A stretch of 64,000 bases of DNA from IMG/VR virus record IMGVR_UViG_3300019378_000003; one strand, 5' to 3'. The position numbers and the translations under genes were made by a program. Source of the DNA: a virus (Duplodnaviria; Heunggongvirae; Uroviricota; Caudoviricetes). The notes under the pieces are model-generated. The model saw only the letters and a list, made by a program, of their open reading frames with translations, did no database searches and had not been told where the DNA came from. Positions 27,133 through 62,880 of the stretch are shown one piece after another. Within the stretch, counting starts at the first letter, position 1. Every line of letters begins with the position of its first letter.

Positions 27133-27162
27133 CTACTCGTTCCTCTCTTTACATTTCCTGTA

Positions 27163-27200
27163 TATATTATATCATAAATTTTTAACTTTTTCAAGTTCAA
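27163..27200 (-). promoter_or_regulatory. Consensus sigma70-type promoter (TTGAAC-N17-TATAAT plus conserved ATATACAGG)
   Basis: Member of the repeated promoter family. It lies upstream of the DAHP-synthase-like gene. Confidence 0.5.
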
Positions 27201-27984
27201 GCGCCGTTTTTATAGCCAAACATTTTTCAATAAGGGCAGGCAATTTATCTAAAGGTAATGCTTGCGCTTTATCACAGCAAGCTCCATATGGAGTATTTTG
27301 AGTTTCAATCATTAATCCATCTGCACCCACAGCAACGGCAGCCAAAGCAAGAGGTTCTACATGAGGAGTATAGCCGGCGGCATGTGATGGATCAACAATT
27401 ACTGGAATCATATTTGCCTCTTGATGAATTTTAGGAATTGCCGCAAGATCAAGAGTAAATCGTGAAGAATCTGAGAAAGTACGAATACCACGCTCACAAC
27501 CATATACCATTGCTTTTGGCATATAATTACGAGCAGCGATAAATTCTTCAACAGTATTGCCAAATCCTCGTTTGAGAAGGATAAGATTATCACTTTCATT
27601 TAATGTGCGCAATAAGCTAAAATTTTGCATATTACGTGAACCAATTTGAAATATTACTTCCACTTTTTCCTCTTCACAACGCTCTTTCACATAATGATAT
27701 TGCTCTTCATCCATAACTTCTACGCAAATACCACTAATAATATTATCATCTGTAGAACAGTTATTTACACAGTTTTGATATTCTCTTAACATTTTTTCAA
27801 AGCCTAATTTTCCTGCTCCTTGATAAGAGAATGTGCTTGTGCGAGGTTTCCAACAGCCGCCTCTTAACCAAAATTCTTCATGAGGAAATCGATTTGCAAC
27901 TTTTTGGATTTCTTCAGTCACATATTTTATATCATTAAAACCTGGGTCTCGTGAAATTGCACAAGGGCCAAGAATAAAAATCAT
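27172..27984 (-). CDS. DAHP synthase (type I-beta) / KDO8P synthase family enzyme
   Basis: Contains 'LGPCAIS...WLRGGCWKPRTSTFSYQGAG...QIGSRNMQNF...LLKRG...GCERGIRTF...IPVIVDPSH..GADGLMIE'. Confidence 0.6.
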   Translation of the reverse strand: MIFILGPCAISRDPGFNDIKYVTEEIQKVANRFPHEEFWLRGGCWKPRTSTFSYQGAGKLGFEKMLREYQNCVNNCSTDDNIISGICVEVMDEEQYHYVKERCEEEKVEVIFQIGSRNMQNFSLLRTLNESDNLILLKRGFGNTVEEFIAARNYMPKAMVYGCERGIRTFSDSSRFTLDLAAIPKIHQEANMIPVIVDPSHAAGYTPHVEPLALAAVAVGADGLMIETQNTPYGACCDKAQALPLDKLPALIEKCLAIKTALELEKVKNL

Positions 27985-28625
27985 TGTAATGTTGCCTTTC
28001 CTGGATTTTCTACTAAAATGTTAAATAATGGACGATATTTTAATGGTACCCAATCATAAGAAGAACAAATAAAAATTAAATCATAATGATCATTAGTGTT
28101 CAAATCTTTTAAATCAGTTAATGTAATATATTCATGATTCTTAGGAAGCTCATGATATAACTACATTTCAGAATTTTTATTACGGACCCATATATATTTA
28201 TTTACCTAATAGTATTTAGTTAAATAATAAAGCCAATTAGTACAGTCATAAGGTCGTTCTTTAAATTCTTCTATGTCATTGTGATGATATCCTCGATCAT
28301 GATGATGATCAATATTTATAATCTCTAAAGAGCCACCAATTTCATGATGAACTTTTTTTATTGCTGGAACAATTTCATTATGATTTTGACCTATTAGTAT
28401 ATAAGATTTAGGATTATGCTTACAAACTTCCCTTAAGAAAAAATATAAATTAGCATATTTTTCATAATCCATTTCAAGGTTACAATTATATTTTAATGCA
28501 GGAATTTCTGTTTCTATTATTTTCCAAGTCTCATCAGGTCCAGATTTACTTACGCGACTATACTAATTATACGCCTAAATAAAAGGCTCCATAACCCAAT
28601 CAAAATCTATACTTAATACTTTCAT
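27981..28625 (-). CDS. Hypothetical protein (about 214 aa, 4 TAG) with His-rich 'IINIDHHHDRGYHH' segment
   Basis: Reconstructed from track ORF 28206..28472 extended through TAG codons on both sides. ATGA overlaps the neighbouring genes at both ends. Confidence 0.3.
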
Positions 28626-29793
28626 GGTCGATAATTCCTCACAATAATTAATTTCTTAGAGGCTCGTGTCGCAGCGGTATATAACCAACGCATATGGTCT
28701 TCCTTACTTTCGCCTCTTAAAAATTCTTCCAAGACAATAACTTTATCATACTCACTACCTTGTGCTTTATGACAAGTAATAGCATATCCATAATCAAACT
28801 GTTTAGGATGATACCATTTAGGGATATTTTTAAAAGTCAATTTATTTACAGTTGCTTCATTTTCTGTAAAGATTTTATAATCTGCTTCTAATTCAGGGAA
28901 TGCTCCAGCACCTTCAAAATCAGGTTGAAAAGTAATGATAGGAGTTTTTCTCATAAATGGATTTTCATCGGTCCAGTCCAATTCAGTAATTGTTCCACTT
29001 AATCCATTTACTAAAGCATCATTAGTATCATTAATACATTCCCATTCGTTATGAAGGCAAATAACTCGATCGCCAACTACAGGTTCCATATCGTCAATTC
29101 CAAGTAAAGTTTGACGAAGATTGGCATTAATAGCACGACGAGTATTATTTTTTCCAACCAAAATTTGATCGGCCCAAGCCAAAAAACCATCTTGAAATAA
29201 TTCATCTCTATCGACAATCCGCACTTCATTACCAGAAAATTTTTCTAAAGCCTTTCCGGCACGAATATCCATAGTGAGACGAATAATTTCACTTTCTTCC
29301 TCTTGTCTCATAATTTCATCTAAGAAAATATGAGGTTTATCCAATACTTCATGTTGTTCTGCAGCAACTGGAGGTAACTGTCCAGGATCGCCAAGAGCAA
29401 TTACATGAATACGATGACGCAGAAGGAGTTCCCACATTACTTTAGGCAGCATGGAAACTTCATCTACGACAATCAGTGAATAAGGGAATATATGGTCAAG
29501 AGGAATATGTACATATGAGCCATCATCTTTTTGGCGAGATTTATACAATAAACGGTGTGCGGTCATAGCATTAGGACAACCTTTTGTTCTTAATACTTGC
29601 GCCGCCTTACCAGTATAAGCCACATAACATACATCTTCAGGGTCAATTCTTAAGGCACTGATAATATACTGCACCAAAGTGCTCTTACCAGTTCCAGTTA
29701 GGCGTAGCCCGCGATACAAGTATAACTTTCTCGGTTCTTGTATCGGGCTACCGCAATTTTCAAGCCTTCTTCTTGTTTAGATGTAAGAATCAT
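28622..29793 (-). CDS. Dda/RecD-like SF1B DNA helicase with a frame disruption near 29698-29703
   Basis: Track ORF 28622..29719 carries Walker A 'TGTGKST', 'VVDEVSM', 'ALGDPGQLPPV', 'GYAITCHKAQGSEYD' and 'YTAATRA'. A 31-codon ATG-initiated ORF upstream in another frame (MILTSKQEEGLKIAVARYKNRESYTCIAGYA*) resembles the Dda N-terminus and ends at TAA where the main frame begins. Confidence 0.65.
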
Positions 29794-62578: not shown

Positions 62579-62614
62579 TTCCTTTCTTTTGGTCGTTTGC
62601 TTTTCTCAACCTTA

Positions 62615-62680
62615 CATATATATTATATCATAAATTTTTAGAATTTTCAAATAAAAAGCCCCGAGTCTAAACCTGGGGCT
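62615..62680 (-). promoter_or_regulatory. Terminator hairpin (GCCCCAGGTTTAGACTCGGGGC) fused to promoter TTGAAA-N17-TATAAT-ATATATGTAAGGTTGAGAA, driving the MVP-homolog gene
   Basis: Family member. The -10 lies at about 62622-62627 and the -35 at about 62644-62649. Confidence 0.55.
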
Positions 62681-62685
62681 ATATA

Positions 62686-62880
62686 TTATTGTTTATGAAT
62701 ATCTCGCCAAGCTATCCAATTCTTGTGGTCGCAACTAGGACACTTCATTAAGCGTTTACCGAACCAATGGAAAGGGTATTTCCATACCCATTTCCAATAG
62801 CCATCAACCCAGAAATCTGTGCCGCAATGCGGACAAGTGAAATGAAGGATAAATTTATTGAATAGCCGCATAACGCTCAC
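62686..62880 (-). CDS. Zinc-ribbon protein
   Basis: Contains 'CPHCGTDFW...CPSCDH'. Confidence 0.3.
   Translation of the reverse strand: MSVMRLFNKFILHFTCPHCGTDFWVDGYWKWVWKYPFHWFGKRLMKCPSCDHKNWIAWRDIHKQ

Follow-up and report, generated by a model that had tools for sequence, protein, structure and literature searches.

Repeated leftward promoter cassettes resembling coliphage T5 early promoters in an uncultured phage that reads TAG as sense

Why should a phage carry so many near-identical copies of one promoter-like module, and why should their conservation run past the −10 hexamer into DNA that is transcribed? The question is raised by a 64,000-nt stretch of DNA (hereafter the window, whose positions supply all coordinates below) from the virus record IMGVR_UViG_3300019378_000003, in which we find 15 near-identical, leftward (minus-strand) promoter copies together with three weaker sites. 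The likely explanation, in our view, is a family of strong promoter cassettes of the sigma-A type, akin to those represented by the early promoters of coliphage T5 and by promoter-early stem-loop (PeSL) cassettes, with a transcribed block that serves promoter escape and ribosome binding. The arrangement is a clean but ordinary example of a layout already known from T5 and T4-type coliphages.

Located by the TG dinucleotide of the extended −10 element, the copies lie on the minus strand at 62630, 60056, 57938, 57063, 53900, 53018, 49116 (a degenerate copy), 47336, 40471, 40215, 37486, 35087, 29836, 27174 and 19893. A first-pass annotation of the window had listed 14 copies, all leftward, in the range 27150–62690; each of these was found, on the minus strand, but the fifteenth copy, at 19893, falls outside that range. 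When the copies were turned into a position matrix covering −35 to −1 and both strands (128 kb) were scanned with it, 13 of the 15 scored 37–47 bits, and the only additional matches were three weaker ones, at 44118 (−), 2230 (+) and 6984 (+). The same matrix found 0–1 matches in each of five mononucleotide-shuffled versions of the window. The 23-mer TATAATATATATGTAAGGTTGAG, which takes in the leader, occurs six times in the window with up to three mismatches, compared with no occurrence in 100 shuffles. These shuffled-sequence controls rule out chance or a low-complexity artefact: the repeat family is real, biologically meaningful and far above chance.

Alignment on the extended −10 gives the consensus TTGAyT TTTTtnAAAAtTTA TGATATAAT ATATAT (G/A)TAAG... 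All copies have 17 bp between −35 and −10. With a single exception, TTCAAA, the −35 reads TTGAyT or TTGAAA, and the −10 is TATAAT in 14 copies and TATACT in one. TG is present at −15/−14 throughout, in 12 copies as the Gram-positive TRTG form (TATG), and the seventh base after the −10 is always a purine. The textbook −35 and −10 elements, 17-bp spacing and extended −10 described in the first-pass annotation are thus seen in all 15 copies; its notation N17-TGaTATAAT is wrong and should read N14-TGaTATAAT. All 15 have the same orientation as the genes they precede, which supports their identification as housekeeping-sigma promoters, with sigma-A dependence, exact start site and promoter strength predicted from the sequence.

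The predicted start sites are non-coding in all 15 cases even though standard-code open reading frames (ORFs) cover 87% of the strand, and each copy lies directly 5′ of a same-strand ORF with a ribosome site. A strong hairpin (dG −13.5 to −21.7 kcal/mol) abuts six copies (62630, 60056, 57938, 57063, 53900 and 35087) and is not present at the other nine. The modules are therefore not mostly fused to a terminator, as had been claimed, and the related proposal that the terminator T-tract doubles as the −35 holds for the six hairpin-fused copies but not for the remaining nine. The TGA of the −35 (TTGAyT) is the stop codon of the upstream ORF in four further copies, and in two more the stop is the TGA of TGATATAAT; with stop codons embedded in the −35 or extended −10, the cassettes are very tightly packed. 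Together the 15 promoters serve about 70 ORFs in units of one to about eight genes, with about three units being monocistronic. Most units are therefore operons, and the earlier picture of individually promoted cistrons has to be abandoned. The minus-strand block concerned (17.2–64 kb) encodes DNA polymerase III alpha, DnaB, NrdD, an ATP-dependent ligase, both gyrase subunits (A and B) and a Dda-like helicase, as well as an RNA-repair-like set (RNA ligase, P-loop kinase, phosphoesterases and nucleotidyltransferase) and a major-vault-protein-like protein.

The closest parallels were found by searching a 55-nt module against 50,697 deposited phage genomes. The best matches are intergenic sites of T5-like phages, one of which runs hairpin, T-tract, TTGCTT, ..AAAAATTT, TGATATAAT, ATATGT, ATAAATTGATGAGAGGAG. 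The T5 record AY587007 carries 15 annotated early promoters in 40 kb (T5P24–T5P38; PN25, P25, P26, P28 and others), which stand before genes such as nrdD and those for ligase and polymerase. Repeat annotations mark the conserved parts of these promoters, several of which touch or overlap annotated rho-independent terminators. By-eye alignment reveals a downstream block common to the T5 promoters, RTAAAT..TTGA..GAGAGG, and T5P30 (TATAATATATTTGTAAGTTGATAAAC) is nearly identical to the window copy at 53900 downstream of the −10. When a matrix made from just the 22 nt that follow the window −10 boxes was run on the T5 locus, seven of the top 25 matches fell inside annotated early promoters and two in 'repeat c', where about 0.5 would be expected, an enrichment for early promoters of about 14-fold over chance.

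The T5 promoters and the window cassettes thus have in common many copies in a DNA-metabolism region, some abutting terminators, a 17-bp AT-rich spacer, A/T tracts by the −10, often a TG before TATAAT, an AT-rich discriminator and, in the transcribed DNA, the block RTAAR..TTGA..GAGAGG, whose 3′ end is the ribosome site. Since the block recurs in annotated T5 early promoters, conservation past the −10 does not by itself imply a phage regulator, and the first-pass suggestion of a leader element or regulator-binding site is not borne out. The two sets differ in the TRTG (Gram-positive) form of the extended −10 used in the window, in host phylum and in phage lineage, the window phage being PolIII-alpha/SPbeta-like and TAG-recoded. 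Given these differences of host and lineage, the resemblance is best viewed as functional or convergent and not as homology.

Dense arrays of unusually strong host-sigma promoters with conservation beyond the hexamers are also a feature of the SPO1 host-takeover module and of T4 early promoters, where a promoter serves one early gene or a few and the units are separated by terminators. Consensus details differ from those of the window module. PeSL cassettes, found in the T4-type phages RB49 and phi1 (Arbiol et al. 2010, PMC2839356), begin with the stop codon of the preceding gene and contain a strong promoter resembling sigma-70 ones, a GC-rich stem-loop that acts as terminator, and then the ribosome site and start codon of the next gene; their presumed role is to keep small early units insulated, and one cassette can recombine with another (PMC2839356). 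The window cassettes likewise repeat an intergenic stop codon, sigma-70-like promoter, Shine–Dalgarno sequence and start codon, and the six hairpin-fused copies match the PeSL description. In the window, however, the hairpin is confined to six of 15 copies and is always upstream of the −35, whereas PeSL hairpins lie mostly between or over the hexamers. Mini-circles, exchange between copies and a link with orphan genes are features described for PeSLs.

How widely is the cassette distributed? An exact 20-mer spanning −10 to +5 has matches at more than 117 IMG/VR loci (a lower bound), with flanks that repeat the −35, the T/A-tract spacer and the leader pattern GTAAG-RTWRAG-ARAG. A promoter-only matrix applied to all the phage loci fetched gave 328 unique sites, 327 of which have a purine 7 nt past the −10; upstream of the −35 the consensus is weak across these sites and the position is often taken by a hairpin. 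The IMG/VR relatives have polymerases 59–75% identical to that of the window and contigs of 100–200 kb. Those used for positional orthology were collected by polymerase homology and not by the promoter motif, and their promoters occupy orthologous positions, among them those in front of the helicase, PolIII alpha, gyrB, a 93-aa ORF, the DnaB unit and the unit after NrdD. At the DnaB site the abutting hairpin is kept in relatives with quite different stem sequences, as a functional terminator predicts.

These relatives also bear on whether the copies are PeSL-like mobile cassettes, kept near-identical by recombination or gene conversion and acting as break-and-join points for gene shuffling. 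Such mobility would be compatible with promoter function and we regard it as possible, if rather improbable. PeSLs share the parts list and do recombine (PMC2839356). Non-contact positions are nearly identical among the window copies; across the phage loci, leader identity from +6 to +16 is slightly but significantly higher within a locus than between loci (0.525 versus 0.483; 0 of 500 permutations reach the observed value); and gene order varies among relatives with cassettes at the junctions, as in locus L100. The within-genome excess of similarity is small, however, and comparison of the window with its 75% relative shows two clear indels, close to the genes for the helicase and PolIII, that are not bounded by cassettes. 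Most cassettes, moreover, are positionally orthologous across relatives, which gives them an inherited rather than a mobile look, although the relatives' loci are fragments and the shuffling test is correspondingly low in power.

What, then, is conserved beyond the −10? The first-pass annotation was right that conservation continues into the transcribed region, but the full leader GTAAGGTTGAG is found in three copies only. A fourth begins ATAAGGTTGAG; a [GA]TAAG start is present in seven copies, and the rest begin AGAAG, AGGAA, ATAAT and similar. From +1 to +20 the leaders are 81% purine, against 52% upstream. The start codon lies 23–37 nt downstream of the predicted start site in most window copies, from which it follows that the 3′ half of the block (GARAGG) is a ribosome-binding site. 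Across the relatives' sites, the +1 to +15 consensus is alike in the 150 that have a start codon within 40 nt and the 178 that do not, and cassettes also directly precede tRNA genes. These two observations exclude the ribosome site as sole cause of leader conservation: the block must do more than signal translation. Promoter escape is helped when the initial sequence of the non-template strand is rich in purines (PMC12464699), and at the T5 N25 promoter the initial transcribed sequence is a determinant of escape (PMC12464699, PMC5961368); by analogy, the window block may have an escape role as well.

The mechanism that we favour can be set out as follows. The host housekeeping-sigma (sigma-A/sigma-70 type) RNA polymerase would read each compact cassette, which consists, from 5′ to 3′, of the −35 TTGAyT, a T-tract/A-tract spacer, a TRTG-type extended −10 (TATGATATAAT), the AT-rich discriminator ATATAT, a predicted purine start site 7 nt past the −10, a purine-rich initial transcribed sequence (RTAAG-N1-2-TTRA), the Shine–Dalgarno sequence GARAGG and a start codon 23–37 nt from the start. 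The cassettes head units for DNA replication, nucleotide metabolism and RNA-repair-like genes. Where insulation would be needed, the hairpin of an intrinsic terminator is placed directly upstream with its U-tract running into the −35 and T-rich spacer; elsewhere the TGA stop of the upstream gene is embedded in the −35 or extended −10. The sequence past the −10 would then be conserved in part for ribosome binding and in part because discriminator and initial transcribed sequence govern open-complex behaviour and escape, and early expression of the units is plausible.

Several observations weigh against this account. The window −35 is TTGAyT where that of T5 is TTGCTT, and the window lacks a clear A-rich block near −43. 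The initial sequence holds a TG step at +8/+9, a step that was tied to slower escape in one in vitro study (PMC5961368). The identity of spacer and discriminator exceeds what sigma contacts need, so that curvature, recombination or an added factor may be involved. Several genes under these promoters contain in-frame TAG codons (see below), with which an 'immediate-early' label sits uneasily. Finally, start sites, strength and timing are all properties that we infer.

A phage SP82 leader and the cryIIIA STAB-SD sequence of Bacillus are reported to act as 5′ stabilisers, and provide a model for a different reading of the purine block, in which a polypurine Shine–Dalgarno-like 5′ end would stabilise the RNA, a ribosome or 30S subunit near the 5′ end blocking 5′-to-3′ decay. 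We judge this unlikely. The purine content of the leaders (given above) would suit it, as would the predicted pairing of AGARAGG with the Firmicute 16S 3′ tail (UCUUUCC), alike for A and G variants, and the retention of the purine block in long leaders and before tRNA genes, where a translation role is impossible. In most window copies, however, the purine stretch is the working ribosome site of the first gene, and the same block is present in T5, a phage of E. coli, which lacks RNase J. Nor is a structural stabiliser general, since 5′-terminal hairpins form in only 17 of 140 GTAAG leaders where about eight are expected, a minority feature. A 5′-terminal hairpin was similarly rejected as the general purpose of GTAAG, since just 9 of the 140 leaders allow GTAAG...CTTAC pairing. 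A known RNA element in the leader was likewise rejected: the window as a whole gave no Rfam match above threshold, and it contains no tRNA. A second leader motif, AAAGAC-N5-6-rCAGCAAw at +13 to +31, was seen in 22 of the relatives' 328 cassette leaders and is absent from the window; its carriers are mostly long leaders without a nearby start codon (for example those at L001, L015, L030, L043 and L045, and also L074, L080, L082, L087 and L094).

Could the start of the leader instead hold the polymerase back? At lambda pR′, AACGAT at +1 to +6 brings about a sigma-70-dependent pause at +16 (PMC4005639). TAAGRT, at +2 to +7 of the window leaders, might similarly act as a −10-like element giving a sigma-A-held pause near +16 to +18, which would then be the loading point for a phage antiterminator and allow later read-through of the terminators between units. 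TAnnnT starts at +2 in 147 of the 328 sites and at any other offset in 0–2 sites. The motif's T and A are fixed by the pattern that collected most of the sites, but the T at +7 lies outside it, and TAnnnT at +2 occurs in just 28 of the 188 non-GTAAG sites and is thus concentrated in the GTAAG class. Terminators do, moreover, separate several units. We nevertheless find the pause highly improbable. The hexamer is present at +2 in only seven window copies, about half; no Q-like gene or Q-binding element turned up, although no search was aimed at them; and T5 promoters with a similar TAAATT are known for fast escape, not for regulated pausing.

As to the host, megablast found no close DNA relatives among deposited phages. 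The nearest relatives of the window polymerase, at about 38% identity, come from phAss-1, SPbeta (YorL) and the Enterococcus phages VRE9, EF1 and H1, and phAss-1, the nearest GenBank genome, has only three weaker copies of the module in 50 kb. The first-pass preference for a Firmicute over a Bacteroidota host agrees with the TRTG element, the AGGAGG-type ribosome sites, the polymerase relatives and, loosely, the labels of metagenome-assembled genomes (MAGs), and we take the source to be a large, uncultured Firmicute phage from gut or rumen. Scanning genomes that represent species was rejected as a means of calling the host, its 66 matches being in MAGs labelled with many phyla and giving a loose Firmicute signal only. 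About half of these matches are on multi-cassette, phage-like contigs of 140–240 kb, and the rest are single ordinary promoters. Many of the GTDB loci L160–L225 are contigs of this size, with 3–11 cassettes per 8 kb and MAG labels that include Lachnospiraceae, Bacilli, Treponema, Alistipes and others; these contigs are probably phage genomes of the clade that have been mis-binned into bacterial MAGs.

The phage reads TAG as a sense codon, most likely as glutamine. With TAG taken as sense, the plus strand from 0.4 to 16.9 kb (438–16879) tiles into 19 ORFs with 0–7 in-frame TAGs each, and on the minus strand genes at 48240–47353, 39784–38828, 35045–34515, 31764–29857, 28625–27981 and 22621–20411 read through TAG; once fragmented ORFs are fused into a tight tiling, a single gene can contain as many as 11 in-frame TAGs. 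Some TAG positions lie within Pfam domains, and the residue that relatives align to a window TAG is Q in 211 cases, E in 59, K in 57 and a stop in 34. The recoded minus-strand genes under cassettes include NrdD, which is 736 aa long after reading through two TAGs, and the first gene after the cassette at 35087. This agrees with phAss-1, which has been classed in the 'code 15 clade'.

Recoding is unevenly spread along the window. From 17.2 to 49.6 kb, 16 of 48 apparent ORFs end at TAG, while the GC-richer block from 49.6 to 64 kb is free of TAG both in frame and as a stop (22 ORFs, 11 ending in TAA and 11 in TGA). Six cassettes lie in this TAG-free block; every one has a [GA]TAAG leader, and all but one are hairpin-fused. 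Taken with the suppressor tRNA of relatives, this suggests a code-neutral immediate-early block placed, like that tRNA, under one cassette subclass, an association that is confounded by position along the genome.

In the related phages themselves, cassettes are scattered through large tRNA arrays. A GTAAG cassette in the 75% relative begins 33 nt before an amber-suppressor tRNA, and cassettes directly precede such a tRNA (anticodon CTA) at L017 7931–8069 (−), L001 1810–1993 (−) and L037 3340–3523 (+), with a 33-nt leader in L017 and leaders of 93 nt in the other two. L067 has a TTA-anticodon tRNA beside the CTA one and L107 a tmRNA gene.

One could go further and tie two promoter subclasses to a switch of genetic code. 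[GA]TAAG-(N)TTRA leaders, with TAAGRT at +2 to +7, would head the TAG-free block and the relatives' amber-suppressor tRNA, AGAAA-type leaders would head the TAG-recoded replication genes, and the GTAAG block, recognised either by sigma-A as a place to pause or by a clade-specific phage factor, would time the hand-over from standard to recoded expression. We offer this as speculation that is probably wrong. Among relatives, the share of first downstream ORFs that contain an in-frame TAG differs between leader classes in the expected direction (5% versus 14%), but not significantly (p = 0.18). If true, it would describe hand-over timing across a large clade of gut and rumen phages, and the tentative link between cassette subclass and TAG-free or TAG-recoded genes could make the timing of the code switch testable.

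The two leader subclasses, with [GA]TAAG heading all six units in the TAG-free block (49.6–64 kb) and one of nine elsewhere, could also be read as pointing to an operator. On this reading, the +1 to +16 block would be the binding site for a phage regulator acting as an on/off switch, and a 120-aa winged-helix-like protein (37439–37077) would be a candidate, having a weak transcription-regulator match and being conserved in relatives. Conservation that reaches beyond the sigma contacts would suit such a site too. The block, however, has no dyad symmetry and is found as part of the promoter in the early promoters of T5, an unrelated phage of an unrelated host; the regulator matches are weak (E 2.7e-5 and 2.3e-4, with the Pfam score under cut-off), and the link between subclass and block is subject to the positional confounding noted above. 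We therefore think an operator very unlikely, and retain promoter escape and ribosome binding as the likely functions of the transcribed block.

Read as promoters, the cassettes show at once how transcription would be laid out in an uncultured clade of Firmicute phages that are large and TAG-recoded; the word promoter is absent from PMC10607447 and from the Borges preprint on these phages. That a Firmicute phage and coliphage T5 share an extended promoter design running into the transcribed region supports the view that discriminator and initial transcribed sequence are parts of an optimal bacterial promoter. The module is also a compact, probably very strong promoter/terminator part for Gram-positive gut bacteria, and a sequence tag with which to find related phage contigs, including those mis-binned into bacterial MAGs.

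The individual cassettes, all on the minus strand, can be described from right to left. Cassette 1 (62600..62650; 42.8 bits) has −35 TTGAAA, TGATATAAT and leader GTAAGGTTGAG, with a hairpin at about 62657–62680 directly upstream, and is predicted to drive the major-vault-protein-like gene 62578–60110 (identified by Pfam). Cassette 2 (60026..60076; 46.7 bits; leader ATAAGGTTGAG), in which a hairpin at 60076–60102 abuts the −35, would drive a nucleotidyltransferase-like gene (60015–59170). Cassette 3 (57908..57958; 46.3 bits) has leader GTAAGTTAAAG and a hairpin at about 57958–57989 that abuts the −35; cassette 4 (57033..57083; 40.6 bits) has the exceptional −35 TTCAAA, leader GTAAGGTTGAG and a hairpin at 57089–57109. 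Cassette 5 (53870..53920; 44.9 bits), with leader GTAAGTTGATG and a hairpin at 53927–53945, precedes a metallophosphoesterase gene as its predicted target. Cassette 6 (52988..53038; 38.6 bits; leader GTAAGGTTGAG) is without a hairpin and has the upstream ORF's TGA stop within its −35, TTGATT.

The RNA-related cluster that lies under these cassettes (52199–63832, −) comprises the major-vault-protein-like protein, with shoulder and repeat domains, a DUF2828/DUF7788 protein, an RNA ligase, the nucleotidyltransferase, an AAA_33 kinase and two metallophosphoesterases, and has the look of a module for RNA repair or of a vault/Ro-like one. The gene at 51070–49604 encodes a flotillin/SPFH protein.

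Cassette 7 (49086..49136; 23.4 bits) is the degenerate copy, with TGATATACT and leader AGCAAAG. Cassette 8 (47306..47356; 44.9 bits; leader GTAAAAG) would drive gyrB (47293–45395). Cassette 9 (40441..40491; 40.7 bits) has TGTTATAAT and the TGA stop of the ligase gene within its −35. Cassette 10 (40185..40235; 37.1 bits), with TGCTATAAT, has an unusually long 90-nt leader before a 91-aa ORF; this ORF, behind the TG at 40215 (leader region 40110–40200), is 77% identical in relatives, and its leader is without an Rfam match. Cassette 11 (37456..37506; 47.1 bits; leader GTAAGATTAAG) is the putative promoter of the 120-aa winged-helix-like protein discussed above. Cassette 12 (35057..35107; leader AGAAGT), with a hairpin at 35104–35134 fused to its −35, would drive a TAG-containing 176-aa ORF and then DnaB. 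Cassette 13 (29806..29856; 37.8 bits) lies upstream of the Dda-like helicase and cassette 14 (27144..27194; 38.9 bits) upstream of DNA polymerase III alpha (27132–23281); in the latter the upstream ORF's stop is the TGA of TGATATAAT, and an orthologous promoter is present in all relatives examined. Cassette 15 (19863..19913; 29.2 bits) is the copy that the first-pass annotation did not list.

The minus-strand block meets the convergent plus-strand block at a strong GC-rich hairpin (17202–17233) flanked by an A-run and a T-run, which is likely to be a bidirectional terminator. By eye, no obvious late-promoter motif was seen upstream of the plus-strand genes. Three weak candidates complete the set: 44068..44118 (−; TGATACAAT; 20.5 bits), near the end of the ORF upstream of gyrA; 6984..7034 (+; TGGTATTAT; 18.9 bits); and 2230..2280 (+; 21.8 bits), a TTGACA-N17-TATAAT with TG just before a TAG-recoded repeat protein. 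This last protein (2279–4885, +) is 868 aa long, contains seven in-frame TAGs and has no Pfam match, and is marked by Cys-containing repeats of about 22 residues with the pattern C-G-x-N-V-x-x-M-x-x-x-Y-x-x-C-x-x-L-T.

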